Shown: piece by piece, positions 56,935-64,000 of the stretch
Position numbering within the stretch: the stretch's first letter is position 1
Layout: each line of letters begins with the position of its first letter
Assembly (NCBI GenBank): GCA_018646675.1
Contig: JABGUH010000039.1
Coordinates: 3,833-67,832 of the forward strand
Length of the DNA stretch: 64,000 nucleotides
Source: Bdellovibrionales bacterium
GTDB taxonomy: Bacteria; Bdellovibrionota; Bacteriovoracia; Bacteriovoracales; Bacteriovoracaceae
Reading direction: 5' to 3'
The notes under the pieces: generated by a model
The model's database searches: none
What the model was told of the DNA's origin: nothing
Seen by the model: only the letters and a program-made list of their open reading frames with translations
Program-made: the position numbers and the translations under genes

Positions 56935-57008
56935 AGAATCAAATCATCATTAACTGCTTTATGGAGTCTAGTGATTTTTTGATCACAAATAATTACAGGA
57001 GTAGAGTT

Positions 57009-58301
57009 ATGAAAAAAATAGTTGGATTGCTGGCACTCTGTATCTTTTCACAAAGTGGACAGTTATTAGCAACTAATGGCATGTCTCCCATTGGGATTGG
57101 TGCACAAGCGAAAGCGATGGCCGGAGCCGGTATCGCTTTAAGTGAGAGCTCTTTGATTGGTGGGTATAACCCCGCTGGGATTGCAAGGGTTGGACGACGT
57201 TTTGACTCAAGCCTCTCTCTTTTCAACCCCACTCGCTCCTATCATAGTGAATCACAAAATATTAAACCTTTTGCAGAAGAGAAGAAAAGTAAGAACCCAC
57301 TCTTTCTTATCCCATCGATCGGCCATGTTCAACCAATCGGCACCCACTCCGCATGGGGAATCACCATGTATGCCAAAGGAGGAGGAGGAGTTGCCTATGA
57401 TAATACGGCAACTTTTTCGGGAATCGGCCAGGCACTAGTTAATAATGGACACGGGGAGGGAGTTTGGACAACTTCTGAAGTACAGCAAGTTGGACTAGCA
57501 CTAAACTATGCAATCAATCTAAACGATCAGCACTCAATTGGCTTCGGTCCCGTTTTAGGTTTTCAGCGCTTCAATATAACTGGTATTGGATATTTCAAGG
57601 AGATTAGCACTGATCCAGATAATTTAACTGACAATGGTTGGGATAACTCTGGCGGCATTGGCGGTGCGATTGGCTGGCAAGGGCGTCTTACCAGCAATAT
57701 AACCCTGGGTGCAGCTTACCACAGCAAGTTGATCATGACCAAATTCAGCAAATACCGCGGACTGTTCGCAGGTGGTAAGATGGATATTCCCGCACAGTAT
57801 ATTGTCGGCGCAACAGTACGTCCGACAGAGCGCTGGCAGTTATCTGTTGACTATCAAGTAATCGAGTACTCTAAAGTTCCGGCGCTGGCAAATCCCCATG
57901 AGGAATCCATGGCCCAGGCAGTTAATTCATCTACTTTTAAACGTATTTTAGGAGCGGACGATGGGCCAGGTTTTGGCTGGGATGATGTAAAGATTCTAAA
58001 AATAGGAAGTAGTTATCGAATAACCCCGACGACGACAGTTCGCACCGGATATAGTGTTGGCAATAGTCCCATTAAAGGTGAGGATGTGCTGTTTAATATC
58101 CTAGCACCGGCAGTTACCGAAGAACACCTCTCAATCGGTCTTTCATACCGTTGGAGCGATGATTATCAGTTTAACCTTGCCTATATTCGCACTTTAGAAA
58201 ACAGGGTAACAGGTACTAATACCAATAATTTTGTTGATCAGGACCTGACACTGGCGATGGATCAACACGACCTAGAGTTAGGATTTTCGATGCTATTTTA
58301 A
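57009..58301 (+). CDS. FadL/TodX/OmpP1-family outer-membrane transporter for hydrophobic compounds
   Basis: The ATG at 57009, after AGGAG, gives MKKIVGLLALCIFSQSGQLLA (signal peptide). The family-typical start is TNGMSPIGIGAQAKAMAGAGIA. The body has alternating beta-strand character and ends in a C-terminal Phe (ELGFSMLF). Confidence 0.72.
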   Translation: MKKIVGLLALCIFSQSGQLLATNGMSPIGIGAQAKAMAGAGIALSESSLIGGYNPAGIARVGRRFDSSLSLFNPTRSYHSESQNIKPFAEEKKSKNPLFLIPSIGHVQPIGTHSAWGITMYAKGGGGVAYDNTATFSGIGQALVNNGHGEGVWTTSEVQQVGLALNYAINLNDQHSIGFGPVLGFQRFNITGIGYFKEISTDPDNLTDNGWDNSGGIGGAIGWQGRLTSNITLGAAYHSKLIMTKFSKYRGLFAGGKMDIPAQYIVGATVRPTERWQLSVDYQVIEYSKVPALANPHEESMAQAVNSSTFKRILGADDGPGFGWDDVKILKIGSSYRITPTTTVRTGYSVGNSPIKGEDVLFNILAPAVTEEHLSIGLSYRWSDDYQFNLAYIRTLENRVTGTNTNNFVDQDLTLAMDQHDLELGFSMLF

Positions 58302-58358
58302 TTTGAATGTTTAATATATTTATCAATTGCAAATAGTATTTTTGCAAAAGGAGATGTG

Positions 58359-58856
58359 ATGAAAAAATTAGGTGTTGTGTTAGTTACATTGTTATTAACA
58401 TTTTCGGCCAGTGCATCAGTATTGATGACCTCCGAATGGGCAGAGGAGTTATGCGAAGAGTGGAACTATAGTGAGGTATTAACCGAAAATCTAGACAGCT
58501 GGATGGATAACAACCTGGAGCGTGGTTACAAAGTGATGATGATGAGCCGATCTGATTGTCCAACAAGCGAATTAGTTCAATTAACATTAAAAAGAGTTGA
58601 TGGCTTAACTTGGTGTACAGCCGGTGGCGCCGGTACTGCCAATGCAAATCCCAAAGCGGACTATATAATGACCGCTACAACTAAAAACTGGCTTAAAATG
58701 GGCAGTGGTGAAGTAGGTCCTGCTATGGCGATGATTACAGGCCGTCTAAAGTTTAAAGGGCCAAAAGGTGAAGCGATGAGAAACATGGGGCCATTTAAGA
58801 GCTTTATGCTACTAATCGGAGCTTTTGAGTCAGATGCTTCTGTTTGTCCTCAATAG
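58359..58856 (+). CDS. Secreted SCP2 (sterol-carrier-protein-2-like) lipid-binding domain protein
   Basis: Signal peptide is MKKLGVVLVTLLLTFSASA. The C-terminal SCP2-type segment is MAMITGRLKFKGPKGEAMRNMGPFKSF. About 145 mature residues. Confidence 0.58.
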   Translation: MKKLGVVLVTLLLTFSASASVLMTSEWAEELCEEWNYSEVLTENLDSWMDNNLERGYKVMMMSRSDCPTSELVQLTLKRVDGLTWCTAGGAGTANANPKADYIMTATTKNWLKMGSGEVGPAMAMITGRLKFKGPKGEAMRNMGPFKSFMLLIGAFESDASVCPQ

Positions 58857-59190: not shown

Positions 59191-61857
59191 ATGCAGGAAA
59201 AGACCTATAGTGCATTACAAAAGAAGATATTTGAATCTGCCACTGTTGCTCTAATTATATTTATCTTATGCTTTACAGCATGGCAATCATATCAAACTGC
59301 TTATAAACATCATCAAACAGCATTAAAAAATAGTATTCAAACCGTTCTGGATACATCTATCGAATCACTGACTAGTTGGATTAACAGTAAGAAGAATAGT
59401 GTTCACATTTGGGCACAAACAGAACGAATTAAAGAAGACGCCGAAATGCTTTTGCCACTGATTAATCAAAGTCGAAATGCACTTGAAGATTCAAAGCATC
59501 AAAACCATATACGTGAGTGGTTAACCCCTATCATCAGCGGTGGGATATTTGAAAATTATTTTATCGTTTCCCATACAAGCAATATAATTTTAAGCTCAAA
59601 CATAACCACTGGTTTGATCGGCACTCAATCAAAAAGCTATGACATAGATAACTTCCTTCCCAAAATATGGAAGGGGGCACTGGTAATGACTCACCCCTTT
59701 GAGGCTCATATTTCCCTACAACATGGAGATCGCACCAGACGCATGAAGCGGGCAGTTATGTTTGTAGGTGCCCCTATTTATAATCAGTCTAAGGAGGTAA
59801 TTGCCGCCCTAATTTTTCAAATCAACCCATTCTATGAGTTTGTAAATATTTTCAAGAGTGGGCGCATAGGAGTAAGTGGTGAAACCTACGCTTTTAACCA
59901 TCAGGGCCTATTACTCACTGATAGTCATTTTAACCAAAAAACTCAAAGATCAAGTATCGTAAAAACCTATATTAAAATACCTCAAAGCGGCCAGTTTACC
60001 CAGATGGCCAAACAAGCCATCCAAAAAAAGGACGGTTATAATTTAGATGGATATCCTGACTATCGAGGGATCAACGTTGTCGGCGCCTGGCGCTGGGAGC
60101 CAGAACTTAATATGGCCATCACAACAGAGATTGATCAGCAAGAGGCATTTACGCCTTTAAAACCAACTCGAAATATAATAATAGTACTGGTATCCATAAG
60201 CACTCTGCTACTAATTATACTTTTTATAATATTCATAAAGATTAAATCGCAGTTAGAGGAGAAGGTCCGCGAAAAAATATTAAAATTATCTGAAGCAGAT
60301 CGATCCAAGAGTGAATTCCTGGCAAACATGAGCCATGAGATTCGCACTCCAATGAACGCTATTATTGGCCTGTCAGAACTTGTACTAAGGACAAAATTAG
60401 ATGATCTACAGAGAAACTATATCAGTAAAACTTATCTTTCTGCAAAAAATCTTCTCAGTATCATCAATGACATACTTGACCTCTCAAAGATAGAAGCGGG
60501 GAAAATTGAATTAGAGGAGGTAGATTTTAACCTTGAGAATATACTGAATCATTTAGCGACTCTTATTGGGTTTAAGGCTGATGAAAAAAATATTGAACTA
60601 ATCTTTGATATCAGTCCCAATCTCCATACGGCACTGATTGGTGATCCCTTACGACTTGGCCAAATACTTACCAATTTATGTAGTAACGCAACTAAATTTA
60701 CCCCACAAAATAGTGAGATCATAGTTGCAGTTAAAGTCAAAAGTGAGGACAAGCAAAACATTACCCTGCAATTCTCGGTCACCGATAATGGTGCCGGAAT
60801 CTCCGAAGAAGATATCTCAACGCTCTTCAAAAAATTTACTCAAGTTGACACTTCAATATCACAAAATCATGAGGGTACAGGATTAGGACTTGTCATCTGC
60901 AAAAACTTAGTCGAATTGATGAACGGTGAAATTTGGGTTGAGAGTCAACTCGGTAAAGGCAGCTCATTTCACTTCACAGTGACACTTGCTAAACACTCTG
61001 ATCTATCTGCGCAGCAAGATGCCAGCAATTCCAAGTTTAAAATTGGCCATGTTTTAGTCGTTGATGATAACGCGACCTCTCGTAAAATTTTAGAACAGAT
61101 AATAGTTAGCTTTGGTTTGCGAGTTGAACACGCTATTTCAGGAAAAAATGCCATCTCAATTTTAGAAAAAGTAGATCACTCCGACCCCTTTGATCTAATT
61201 CTAATGGATTGGAAAATGCCTGAAATGGATGGGATTAAAACGACTCACTATATTCAACACAGTATGAATATAAAAAATAAACCGATGGTTATCATGGTAA
61301 CAGCTCACTCTATCGAAATGGCACGAAAAGCTGCACTTGATGTTGAATTGAGTGATTTCCTTGTTAAACCAGTCACTCCTTCCATATTACTTAATACGAT
61401 CGTTAAAACAACTGACTCAGGTGGGATCGCCAAAGTTGACCGATCATTAAAACACCCCGAAGTTACTATTGATGAACAGAAACTCTCCGGTGCTAGAATC
61501 TTAGTAGTGGAAGATGATGAGATCAACCGTGAATTAATGGTTGATCTGCTCAAGAGCAGCGGGCTGATTGTCACTACTGCTAAAAATGGCAAAGATGCCT
61601 TAGAGAAACTTACGCAGGAGAGGATTGATGGAGTCCTGATGGATTGCCAGATGCCTATAATGGATGGCTACAAAGCGACTAGAGCGATTCGCCAACAGGA
61701 AAAGTATAAGGCATTACCTATCATCGCATTAACCGCCAATGCAATGACTGGTGATAAAGCGAAGGTATTAGCAGTAGGCATGAACGACTACATTAGCAAA
61801 CCAGTAGATGTGGCCAACATGTTTAAAATTATGGCCAAGTGGATAAGTCCCCAATAG
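59191..61857 (+). CDS. Hybrid sensor histidine kinase (dCache-like periplasmic domain, HisKA, HATPase, two receiver domains)
   Basis: 888 aa. Two TM helices flank a ~300-aa periplasmic region with Cache-like features ([40 protein letters not shown]). The kinase core has H-box [12 protein letters not shown]-box [13 protein letters not shown]1 DNGAGIS and G2 GTGLGL. REC1 is VLVVDDN...[16 protein letters not shown]2 is [11 protein letters not shown]...[12 protein letters not shown]...ALTANA. No internal Hpt domain. Confidence 0.88.
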
Positions 61858-61858
61858 A

Positions 61859-62323
61859 TTAGATAGACTGGCCCAAAGTGTGAATCATCTTTAAATTGCT
61901 ATTTTTAGGAATGCAGGCTGCGGGGTCTAGCGATCTAAAGATATTGAGATCGACCCCTCTTAATTTCTCTCCACGCAGGTGGAGGATCAGGGCCCCTTTG
62001 TCATTGGTCTCTAGCCCCTTCCAACTTTTTTTAAATACTATAGAGCAACTTCTTCTCTCAAGATTAAGCAGCAACCTTGGAACTTTGGAAAAACTAGCAT
62101 CACGATAGGAGTGGGTCCTATAGCTACAGCTTCCAATCGAAGTTTTACCCTTGTAGAGGCGATACTCAAGATCTAGATTAGGGCCTAAAATGACCTTGGC
62201 CTTTAATTGCTTATCCTTCAAGCTAATCTGACACTCTAGCAGAGTGGAGATCTGCCCTGAGAATGCAACAGGGTGTAGAATGCTCAACACTAACACTATC
62301 AAAATACTATTTTTAGTTACCAC
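61859..62323 (-). CDS. Hypothetical small secreted protein, co-transcribed with the PAD homologue
   Basis: 154 aa with signal peptide MVTKNSILIVLVLSILHPVAFS and four Cys. It starts 3 nt after the stop of the upstream PAD-like gene. No family recognised. Confidence 0.5.
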   Translation of the reverse strand: MVTKNSILIVLVLSILHPVAFSGQISTLLECQISLKDKQLKAKVILGPNLDLEYRLYKGKTSIGSCSYRTHSYRDASFSKVPRLLLNLERRSCSIVFKKSWKGLETNDKGALILHLRGEKLRGVDLNIFRSLDPAACIPKNSNLKMIHTLGQSI

Positions 62324-62326
62324 CCT

Positions 62327-64000
62327 CTACTCCCTTGGCTTGCAAAAACGTAGTGCATGGGTTGAACAGTGCACATTGCCATTACCGACATGAGCATAGT
62401 TCCAAGAGTCAACTAGGCCCGTTTTTAAACCTGTCCTACTCTTCATCTCTTTTTCCAAATATTTTTCAAAGGTGGCATTTTGTGGATTTGAGAAGATCAT
62501 CTTATCCCCGGCCAAGACACCATTAGTGGGATTGGGCAGGAAGGAGCTACCAAGACCTTTTTTAAGATCATACAGCTCATTTCCATCATCACCAGTTGAA
62601 ATATTGAGCCCCGACTCTGCCTCAGGATAGAAAATATTGGGTACCTCAATAAAATCGACCTTACCTCGACACTCTGGCATCCGTCCAAAGATCCTCGTCT
62701 CCAGCTCTTTGCGTGCAGCATCCATCTTCTTTTGTACCAACTCGTTGTACTTTTTCAATTCACTGTCTTGTTGATAGCCGTTGAGAAAATCACCATTGGT
62801 CATCTTTGATACCTCATTACGATAATCACTATCGCTAGAACAATCTTTAGGCTCAGCGATATCTTCCTTCTGATCTTTAGTTGACATTTTAATTACTAAA
62901 CCTGCATAGGCATCAAAGGATAGTAAATTCAGTAGTGCTGATTTAACAGTGGTGCTACTTTTCCCCTTCTCCTTATCCATCTTCTTCTGCTTACTGATAC
63001 CGTGGTATAGTTGACAAAGTCGCATTCCAGCAGAGACATCATAGTCCCTTCCATTATCCAAGGAGATCAAAAATCGATCTCGACGAGCCTTTTCAATCAC
63101 CATCTGATCACTACCGTAGTGATCAAAATTAAGAAATGGTTGATGTTGATCATCTTTCATCAACTCCAGTGCCTTGCGTGGGCTGGCCAGCATGATATTA
63201 AAACCACACTTGCCACCACTCTTATCGGGAATTACTTTATAGACCTCATCACTATGGCCGACTACTAACCAGTCAACATCGATTGCGATGACATTTTCCT
63301 CTTTACCACAGAAGTGCTCTGCGTAGTCCTTATAATCCATATTGTCGCCTACGACACAGAATCCCCCTGGTGTAGCTTCAATATTGCCTCCATAGAGAGG
63401 AGCATCGTTACTATATTTTTCTTTAATCCTCTTTAATGCCTCATCGTTAGGCGGTAATCCATCACCTACTTTAATTTGACACTGATTATTGGCACCAATC
63501 CCTTTAATGGTATCGGTACCAATTGCCCCCAGTCGACTACGATAGGTTAGCACCTCACGCATCTGAGCATTGCCTGTTTTAGGGTCGAACATCGATTCAA
63601 AGTAATCCTGCTGCCAAGTATATCCTGTCGCTGGAACAAACTGGATATTTGCTAAGATCTGCTCAACCCGGCCAGTTACACGCAATAATGCATTTGCATC
63701 GAGTCTCTTTCCCACTACCAATTTTTCTAGCAACTGCTTTTTAACATTGCTTCTAATCTTCTCTACACTCTCTGACTTCTCTGTCGGCACAAAAAATAAC
63801 GGCATCTCTCGATTCAGATGTCCATCAACAATGTTGGAGATAAAAGATGATGCGTAGTTTGTATCATTGTCTGATGCCATCCCTCTAGTGGAGACAACAT
63901 ATGCTTGTGCAGGATAACTCTCATCCAAGACTGTGGCACCACTGTTAGGGCAGAGGGGGGCATTGGCACTACTAGGACAGTTACTACTACTAGAACTAGT
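62327..64000 (-). CDS. Eukaryote-type protein-arginine deiminase (PAD) catalytic-domain homologue; 5' end outside the window
   Basis: Segments align with human PAD4 as I remember it. YTWQQDYFE matches WMQDEME. DWLVVGHSDEVYKVIP...FNIMLASPRKALELM matches DWLSVGHVDEFLSFVP...FRLLLASPRSCYKLF. SFLPNPTNGVLAGDKM matches FFPNMVNMLVLGKHL. HVGNGNVHCSTH matches HIRHGEVHCGTN. The track starts at TTG 63928. My translation shows the frame stays open to base 64000 (...TSSSSSNCPSSANAPLCPNSGATVLDESY...), so the gene is truncated by the window edge. Confidence 0.75.
   Translation of the reverse strand, partial: TSSSSSNCPSSANAPLCPNSGATVLDESYPAQAYVVSTRGMASDNDTNYASSFISNIVDGHLNREMPLFFVPTEKSESVEKIRSNVKKQLLEKLVVGKRLDANALLRVTGRVEQILANIQFVPATGYTWQQDYFESMFDPKTGNAQMREVLTYRSRLGAIGTDTIKGIGANNQCQIKVGDGLPPNDEALKRIKEKYSNDAPLYGGNIEATPGGFCVVGDNMDYKDYAEHFCGKEENVIAIDVDWLVVGHSDEVYKVIPDKSGGKCGFNIMLASPRKALELMKDDQHQPFLNFDHYGSDQMVIEKARRDRFLISLDNGRDYDVSAGMRLCQLYHGISKQKKMDKEKGKSSTTVKSALLNLLSFDAYAGLVIKMSTKDQKEDIAEPKDCSSDSDYRNEVSKMTNGDFLNGYQQDSELKKYNELVQKKMDAARKELETRIFGRMPECRGKVDFIEVPNIFYPEAESGLNISTGDDGNELYDLKKGLGSSFLPNPTNGVLAGDKMIFSNPQNATFEKYLEKEMKSRTGLKTGLVDSWNYAHVGNGNVHCSTHALRFCKPRE

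Follow-up and report, generated by a model that had tools for sequence, protein, structure and literature searches.

Introduction

Apart from PPAD of Porphyromonas gingivalis and a small number of enzymes from Streptomyces and cyanobacteria, citrullination has been studied almost only in animals. Here we describe a gene of the peptidyl-arginine deiminase (PAD) family and the small partner gene that follows it, both at the end of a 64,000-nucleotide stretch of contig JABGUH010000039.1 (positions 3,833 to 67,832, forward strand; the whole of this stretch is called the window below). The window comes from a metagenome-assembled genome of a Bdellovibrionales bacterium (GCA_018646675.1).

The vertebrate PADs (PADI1-4 and PADI6; PAD4 structure 1WD8/1WDA) have the PF03068 domain and the pentein fold in common with the deiminase of this locus. 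The catalytic tetrad of the vertebrate enzymes, the residues W347 and R374, and the Ca1 ligands Q349, E353 and E411 all have aligned and conserved equivalents in the deiminase. However, the deiminase has neither the immunoglobulin-like domains PAD_N and PAD_M, nor the Ca2 ligands, nor the Ca3-5 sites. It adds a signal peptide, ten conserved cysteines, an insertion of ~105 amino acids (aa), and a constant downstream partner gene.

PADs with PF03068 are also found in bacteria. The two-domain enzymes, such as the citrulassin PAD of Streptomyces albulus (10.1101/2020.07.16.207027) and the PADIs of PMC8826395, have the same catalytic residues as the deiminase, and relatives of the Streptomyces PAD surfaced in our locus search with it. 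The enzymes of this type that we tested (from Streptomyces, Myxococcaceae and Lachnotalea) are ~630-690 aa long and score 248-383 bits on PF03068, against 45-59 bits for the subfamily of the present deiminase, the tested relatives of which reach 45-55 bits. At E <= 0.01, PAD_M is matched in Lachnotalea, marginally in Myxococcaceae and not in Streptomyces; the present subfamily has no such match. The two-domain bacterial PADs keep many of the Ca ligands. The present subfamily is exported and its partner is always present. One survey describes three-domain PADIs in cyanobacteria and animals, two-domain PADIs in actinobacteria, fungi and proteobacteria, and unnamed bacterial outgroups, with no mention of Bdellovibrio, secretion or partners (PMC8826395). 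The citrulassin study counted 837 bacterial PF03068 proteins in 2020, whose gene neighbourhoods were highly diverse and had no partner in common; Bdellovibrio is likewise unmentioned there (10.1101/2020.07.16.207027).

PPAD (PF04371) belongs to another family, being of the extended agmatine-deiminase type and Ca-independent, and the deiminase has no PF04371 match. To our knowledge, no partner is encoded together with PPAD. PPAD is secreted by its bacterium and citrullinates proteins, and it provides the precedent for extracellular citrullination by bacteria (10.1101/2020.07.16.207027, PMC8826395).

For the arrangement of the two genes, the closest parallel is in Bdellovibrio, where Bd3460 protects the producer from the exported predatory DD-endopeptidase Bd3459 (PMC4686830). 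The likeness to this pair, and to effector-immunity pairs, lies in the adjacency and co-directionality of the genes, the predicted export of both products, a small and fast-evolving partner, and duplication as pairs. The proteins themselves differ: a DD-endopeptidase with an ankyrin-repeat protector in one case, and a deiminase with a small disulfide-bonded beta protein in the other, for which we only infer protection. Our literature searches for a deiminase in Bdellovibrio and Bacteriovorax found nothing relevant, and none is mentioned in the comparative genomics papers on Bdellovibrionota. The enzyme family itself is known, and the exported, partner-linked clade is undescribed in the literature searched.

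Family membership and fold of the deiminase

The deiminase gene is located on the minus strand at 62327..64000 and is open at the window end. It was assigned from its open reading frame (ORF), the Pfam match and the near-identical protein P0001. The ORF has 557 codons inside the window, with the stop TAG at 62327-62329. Its missing end was recovered from a metagenome contig (L001, ENA ERZ4200949), which is 99.9 % identical to window positions 59306-64000 over 4695 nucleotides (nt) and extends 1735 nt beyond the window end. The start codon is 81 nt past position 64000, and the complete protein, P0001, has 584 aa and differs from the window protein in 1 residue. There is no second copy within the window. 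A first-pass annotation, made from the sequence of the window alone, had reported a minus-strand ORF of >550 aa with the motifs WQQD, VGHSDE and VHCST and the window-edge sequence TSSSSSNCPSSANAPLCPNSG. All of these are found as quoted.

A Pfam scan matched the protein to PF03068 (PAD) with 59.2 bits (E = 4.7e-16; gathering cut-off 25). The models PAD_N (PF08526), PAD_M (PF08527), PAD_porph (PF04371) and arginine deiminase/Amidinotransf gave no match at E <= 1; the only other Pfam match at this threshold, DUF6154, was taken as chance. NCBIfam and PADLOC scans of the deiminase gave no match. We aligned 34 homologues of the deiminase, with 28-40 % identity (alignment A1). Searched against the PDB, the A1 profile matched chains of PAD4 (E = 2.5e-9), with GHVDE placed on H471/D473 and GNxHC on C645. 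Comparison of A1 with the catalytic domain of PAD4 by hhalign gave a probability of 97.8 %; the PAD4 sequence used is 100 % identical to the PDB PAD4 chains. With standard settings, hhalign covered the C-terminal half only, and low stringency was required for the region of WQQD and the Ca1 ligands. The low-stringency alignment was cross-checked with a MAFFT alignment that ran via intermediate PADs (Riflebacteria, Bdellovibrionaceae, Streptomyces, Myxococcaceae and Lachnotalea).

An AlphaFold2 (AF2) model built on A1 has a mean predicted local distance difference test score (pLDDT) of 83.8 and a predicted template modelling score (pTM) of 0.84. When this model was searched with Foldseek, the top 50 matches were all vertebrate PADs (PADI1/2/3/4/6), the best at E = 7.9e-13 with a TM score of 0.42 over the full length. 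The sequence identity in these alignments is 12-16 %. Only ~35 mature residues precede the region aligned to the start of the PAD4 catalytic domain. The deiminase is a catalytic-domain-only, outlying branch of PF03068. The first-pass annotation was right in recognizing a PAD catalytic domain, in finding no PAD_N or PAD_M, and in setting the protein apart from the Porphyromonas PPAD/agmatine-deiminase type. Its assignment to the animal/cyanobacterial type is not upheld, as the protein is an outlier at 45-59 bits with its relatives and is not of the three-domain kind.

Active site and calcium sites

The active-site residues are found in four motifs on the minus strand. W156, Q158 and D159 of the WQQD motif (63605..63616) correspond to PAD4 W347, the Ca1 ligand Q349 and the catalytic residue D350 (hhalign and MAFFT). 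E235, in the GGNIE motif (G231-E235; 63377..63391), corresponds to the Ca1 ligand E411 in the FGNLE of PAD4, again by hhalign and MAFFT. H276 and D278 of GHSDE, within VGHSDE (63245..63259), are placed on the catalytic residues H471 and D473 by HMMER and hhalign. The HC motif within VHCST (62366..62371) contains H571 and C572, equivalent to H644 and the nucleophile C645 (profile, hhalign and MAFFT). The tetrad of D159, H276, D278 and C572 (D350, H471, D473 and C645 in PAD4) is invariant in 34/34 homologues, and the four catalytic positions are thus kept as the first-pass annotation had stated. H571 is also invariant in 34/34, as is N233; at position 235, 32 of the 34 homologues have E and the other two have D. 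The columns that are invariant in the MAFFT alignment with PAD4 included are W156, Q158, D159, G232, N233, H276, D278, E279, H564, H571 and C572. The enzyme is a member of the PAD family, and its active site is intact and conserved.

The low-stringency hhalign alignment places W156/Q158/D159/E162 on W347/Q349/D350/E353, R175 on R374, and E235 on E411. In PAD4, W347 and R374 contact the backbone of the peptide substrate. In A1, the W347 equivalent (W156) is kept in 33/34 homologues, and the R374 equivalent in 26/34 with Lys in 6 more. The conservation of these two positions favours peptide-bound arginine as the substrate.

The Ca1 ligands Q158, E162 and E235 are present in 34/34, 32/34 and 32/34 members of the subfamily, respectively. 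The Ca2 positions are replaced: E351 by Tyr or Trp, and D369 by an invariant Gly. By alignment, the region of the Ca3-5 sites is absent from the deiminase. As judged from these alignments, the deiminase appears to keep the Ca1 site and to have lost the Ca2 site.

Export, cysteines and the insertion

The 27 N-terminal residues that lie outside the window, recovered from L001, are MVAMKSLSISLLILTLIFGLCDSGYAT. Read by eye, they have the basic start, hydrophobic core and small-residue cleavage region of a Sec-type signal peptide. Nearly all of the 34 homologues have a signal-peptide-like N-terminus; one of them (P0035) is seemingly truncated N-terminally. Just after the signal peptide, the mature protein contains a cysteine motif, C35-x8-C44-P-x-S-G (CPSSANAPLCPNSG; 63938..63979, minus strand; alignment A1), of which C35 is kept in 32/34 and C44 in 33/34 homologues. 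The first-pass annotation had seen here a Ser/Cys/Pro-rich linker running off the window, as in an exported or lipid-anchored protein. The reading frame does continue past position 64000 with no in-frame stop, and the upstream sequence leads into the signal peptide. The linker is translated, and most of it is the conserved CP...CPxSG motif following a cleavable signal peptide. Export is supported by the recovered N-terminus. Lipoprotein anchoring was rejected: the residues before Cys21, F-G-L, do not form a lipobox, and the homologues have no Cys at this position.

Ten non-catalytic cysteines of the deiminase are each conserved in >= 32/34 homologues. These are consistent with an exported enzyme that is disulfide-bonded.

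Compared with PAD4, the subfamily has ~105 extra aa in a specific insertion (P0001 ~311-476; 62654..63151, minus strand), delimited with A1, the AF2 model, hhalign and MAFFT. This is the insertion of ~110 aa that had been noted before the FIEVPNIF block, and it is found in all subfamily members. The ASPR helix precedes it and the IEVP strand follows it, and the AF2 model shows mostly helices within it. Two invariant cysteines, C356 and C414, are within it. Between them, the per-sequence listing shows a signal-peptide-like element (K380-SALLNLLSFDAYA-393; 62903..62944, minus strand). The pattern of a basic residue, 8-10 hydrophobic residues and A-x-A is conserved; KSALLNLLSFDAYA, KSVFLKLFFTDASAG and RSVFLNFIMNKASAE are examples. 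Residues 380-409 have an AF2 pLDDT of < 50. Possible roles for the element are a site of processing, a loop that dips into the membrane, or an autoinhibitory segment.

The deiminases of the clade are poor in Arg: their median is 2.6 %, whereas the 168 other ORFs of these loci (L001-L026) have 4.6 %. On composition, this could reflect the avoidance of self-citrullination.

The partner protein

The partner gene (61859..62323, minus strand) was identified from its ORF, its conservation and an alignment of 23 partners (A2), which are 11-28 % identical to the partner in the window. It encodes a basic protein of 154 aa, with an isoelectric point of ~9.3, that is predicted to be secreted. Its start codon, GTG, is 3 nt after the TAG stop of the deiminase. 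A Shine-Dalgarno-like AAGGGAG (62330..62336, minus strand) is found inside the end of the deiminase ORF, 6 nt before the GTG, and this placement suggests translational coupling. The signal peptide (VVTKNSILIVLVLSILHPVAFS; 62258..62323, minus strand) was read from the translations, and residues 1-24 have an AF2 pLDDT of < 50. In A2, a signal peptide is common to the partners, as are four cysteines (C31, C66, C93 and C137) that are invariant or nearly so.

The partners are uniformly basic, with a median isoelectric point (pI) of 9.3, whereas the enzymes are acidic (median 5.9). The opposite charges are a hint, from composition, that the two proteins may bind each other. Lys is high in the partners (12.4 %), and Arg, at 4.6 %, equals the background. 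The Arg depletion that would be expected for an inhibitor that is not a substrate was looked for and is not seen.

Pfam, NCBIfam and PADLOC gave no family match for the partner. A profile search of the PDB gave a single weak match, SifA (E = 0.0026), which was taken as chance. A profile search of a collection of 5.8 billion proteins, the sensitivity of which is limited by its word filter, gave 6 proteins, and the AF2 model of the partner was for this reason built from 7 sequences. The model has eight beta strands and a C-terminal helix, and its best pLDDT is 83.

Conservation and duplication of the gene pair

The first-pass annotation had proposed the secreted 154-aa protein encoded 3 nt downstream as a possible partner. 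Conservation of the arrangement agrees with this. In 25/25 related loci (L002-L026), an ORF of 125-183 aa is found on the same strand directly after the PAD gene; where the contig stops early, the N-terminus of the partner ORF is still seen. The two genes overlap by 4 nt in twelve pairs and by 1 nt in two. The partner is the sole neighbour conserved across the loci, further conserved neighbours being found only among closely related genomes. By inspection only, signal-peptide-like sequences are seen at the N-termini of both families, together with pairs of conserved cysteines.

One contig (L082, 1-3642, from Logan SRR22388042) carries the tandem array PAD-partner-PAD-partner with overlapping stop and start codons. 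The two enzymes in it are 34 % identical, and the two partners 39 %. This array indicates that enzyme and partner are passed on and duplicated together. Divergence is faster in the partner, with identities of 11-28 % against ~30-40 % in the enzyme.

Proposed mechanism and alternatives

We propose that the locus encodes an exported peptidyl-arginine deiminase and a translationally coupled secreted partner, which would most likely be a tight-binding inhibitor that protects the producer. We give this reading as a whole a probability of roughly 40 %. The deiminase would be exported by the Sec pathway, its signal peptide cleaved and its fold stabilized by disulfides. It would then hydrolyse the guanidino groups of arginine in peptides or proteins to citrulline and ammonia. 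Asp159 and Asp278 would hold the guanidinium group while the thiolate of Cys572 attacks its carbon. With His276 as the acid/base, ammonia would depart, and the thiouronium intermediate would be hydrolysed to citrulline. Ca1 (Gln158, Glu162 and Glu235) would be retained in an enzyme with neither the Ca2 site nor the regulatory apparatus of Ca3-5 and PAD_M. The partner, a small, strongly basic beta protein with two predicted disulfides, would be made by coupled translation and exported to the same compartment. There it would bind the acidic enzyme as its cognate partner, most likely as a tight-binding inhibitor, and would keep it harmless in the periplasm of the producer until release onto prey or extracellular proteins. 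That the substrate is peptidyl-arginine, that the proteins bind, that the partner inhibits and that prey is the target are each likewise what we infer. Binding is suggested by the gene organisation, the complementary charges, the fast divergence of the partner and the duplication as pairs.

These same features would suit a partner that is an accessory subunit: a chaperone for folding or export, an activator in place of the Ca2/PAD_M regulation, or a subunit that directs the enzyme to its substrate or onto the surface of the prey. Universal adjacency, overlapping stop and start codons, opposite charges and pairwise duplication are all expected of it, and the loss of the regulatory domains and Ca2 ligands of classical PADs makes an external regulator plausible. 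However, identities as low as 11-28 % are more typical of inhibitor and immunity proteins than of essential structural subunits, and the partner has no similarity to a known chaperone or a lectin-like targeting domain. We regard an accessory subunit as unlikely. By analogy with the Streptomyces PADs that act on the lasso peptide citrulassin, the partner might instead be a dedicated substrate that is matured by citrullination. Tight coupling of the genes would agree with this, as would a basic protein of ordinary Arg content, and there is a documented case of a ribosomal peptide modified by a bacterial PF03068 PAD (10.1101/2020.07.16.207027). The pattern of conservation in the partner is against it: only the four cysteines are conserved among the 23 partners, and no Arg column. 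The partner is also predicted to be a folded beta protein with two disulfides and not a leader-core peptide, the citrulassin PADs are not encoded beside their substrate (10.1101/2020.07.16.207027), and coupled 1:1 pairs of enzyme and substrate are unusual. A dedicated substrate therefore seems distinctly unlikely.

The specificity of the enzyme itself has also to be considered. It might be an exported hydrolase of small guanidino compounds (free arginine, agmatine or arginine-containing peptides) that scavenges nitrogen and produces ammonia, next to an unrelated or generic periplasmic protein. The Cys/His/Asp chemistry is common to the arginine, agmatine and dimethylarginine hydrolases of the pentein superfamily (PMC8826395), and the subfamily is at the edge of PF03068. 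For these two reasons, family membership alone cannot give the substrate specificity. Yet PAD is the only one of these models to match at E <= 1, with nothing for Amidinotransf/ADI or PAD_porph; the top structural neighbours are all PADs, and the equivalents of W347 and R374 are conserved. Strict conservation of the neighbour and its duplication together with the enzyme speak against an unrelated gene. We consider a small-guanidino hydrolase very unlikely.

Several observations weigh against the inhibitor proposal. The signal peptides of both proteins were judged by eye, and the Ca1 and R374 assignments, in the N-terminal half, rest on the low-stringency hhalign and MAFFT alignments. The model of the partner comes from 7 sequences only, and the other four models have a pLDDT of 60-73. 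Foldseek with this model found no significant neighbour in the PDB (best E = 0.12), and folds of periplasmic inhibitors such as PliC were reached at E ~1 only. The ordinary Arg content of the partner gives no sign that it is guarded against serving as a substrate. Finally, the representative genomes of B. bacteriovorus and Halobacteriovorax are not among the 80 best loci, which argues that the module is not a core function of predation.

The inhibitor proposal can be extended to predation, in a form that is possible and that we hold as doubtful. In predatory Bdellovibrionota, the exported PAD might neutralise arginine charges on envelope or periplasmic proteins of the prey, an immunity protein of new fold might silence it in the predator, and the disulfide-bracketed, signal-peptide-like loop might serve as a processing or activation switch.

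The clade is a sizeable and uncharacterised group of the PAD family: it is exported, it has none of the known regulatory domains, and it is constantly accompanied by a small partner whose model has no significant structural neighbour. Its members are concentrated in bacteria that kill others. Citrullination of prey proteins, if the enzyme carries it out, would bring a new chemistry to bacterial antagonism. A partner with an inhibitory role would be a natural example of a protein that blocks a PAD active site; inhibitors of PADs are sought for autoimmune disease and cancer. Should the effector-immunity reading be true, the pair would be the first effector-immunity system to act by arginine deimination, and the partner would be the first protein inhibitor for an enzyme of the PAD family. 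A minimal enzyme, free of PAD_M and of Ca2, would inform the evolution of PAD regulation. The cultured carriers Bacteriovorax sp. HI3 and Bdellovibrio sp. HCB274 make these questions accessible to direct testing.

Distribution and genomic surroundings

A HMMER search of 1.84 billion cluster representatives yielded 247 proteins with E <= 1e-30, and 1332 with the limit relaxed to E <= 1e-3; most of them are full length, with 480-600 aa. At 50 % identity, the subfamily comprises at least 247 clusters. With this number, and with the 837 bacterial PF03068 proteins of the citrulassin study (10.1101/2020.07.16.207027), members of the family are less sparse in bacteria than the first-pass annotation had stated, and they are not rare in metagenomes. 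In contigs from one genome per species, the close relatives are almost all from Bacteriovorax, Bacteriovoracaceae, Bdellovibrio or Oligoflexia, and the two cultured strains named above are among them. The enzyme and its partner are a conserved two-gene module of Bdellovibrionota, concentrated in predatory lineages. The orthologue in Bacteriovorax sp. HI3 (P0013) is named 'resolvase' in NCBI nr, an apparent misannotation.

Other exported PAD-domain proteins are found outside the subfamily. In Bdellovibrionia, they have ~488 aa and an N-terminal membrane anchor; in Riflebacteria, they have ~486 aa and signal peptides. Those of Myxococcaceae have 628 aa with a possible lipoprotein signal, LLMGCG (by eye), and one of them has a marginal PAD_M match. 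The loci examined were L027-L030, L033, L041, L044, L055 and L057, and none has the four-cysteine partner; it is not present beside the membrane-anchored Bdellovibrionia proteins or those of Riflebacteria and Oligoflexales. Two of these loci (L027 and L029) have a different secreted ORF, of 235 aa with five cysteines, ~125 nt downstream of the PAD gene.

In the window, the partner gene is convergent with the gene of a hybrid sensor kinase/response regulator of 888 aa (59191..61857, plus strand), which has a sub-threshold dCache_1 match, HisKA, HATPase_c and two receiver domains. One base separates the ends of the two ORFs, so that a terminator cannot fit between them. This neighbour is not conserved in the related loci. 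On the other side, the 276-nt intergenic region upstream of the PAD gene has no sigma-70-like promoter consensus, and a scan of the operon region for promoters and terminators was uninformative: shuffled sequence gave more matches. Beyond the window end, two ORFs (163 and 189 aa; L001:276-1378) for which Pfam gave no match are divergent from the PAD gene, upstream of it and on the opposite strand. Further away in the window, at 56961-58856 (plus strand), the gene of an outer-membrane transporter of FadL/TodX type (446 aa) precedes that of a secreted protein of 166 aa, which is SCP2 sterol-carrier-like. These two may be a pair for the uptake of hydrophobic compounds.

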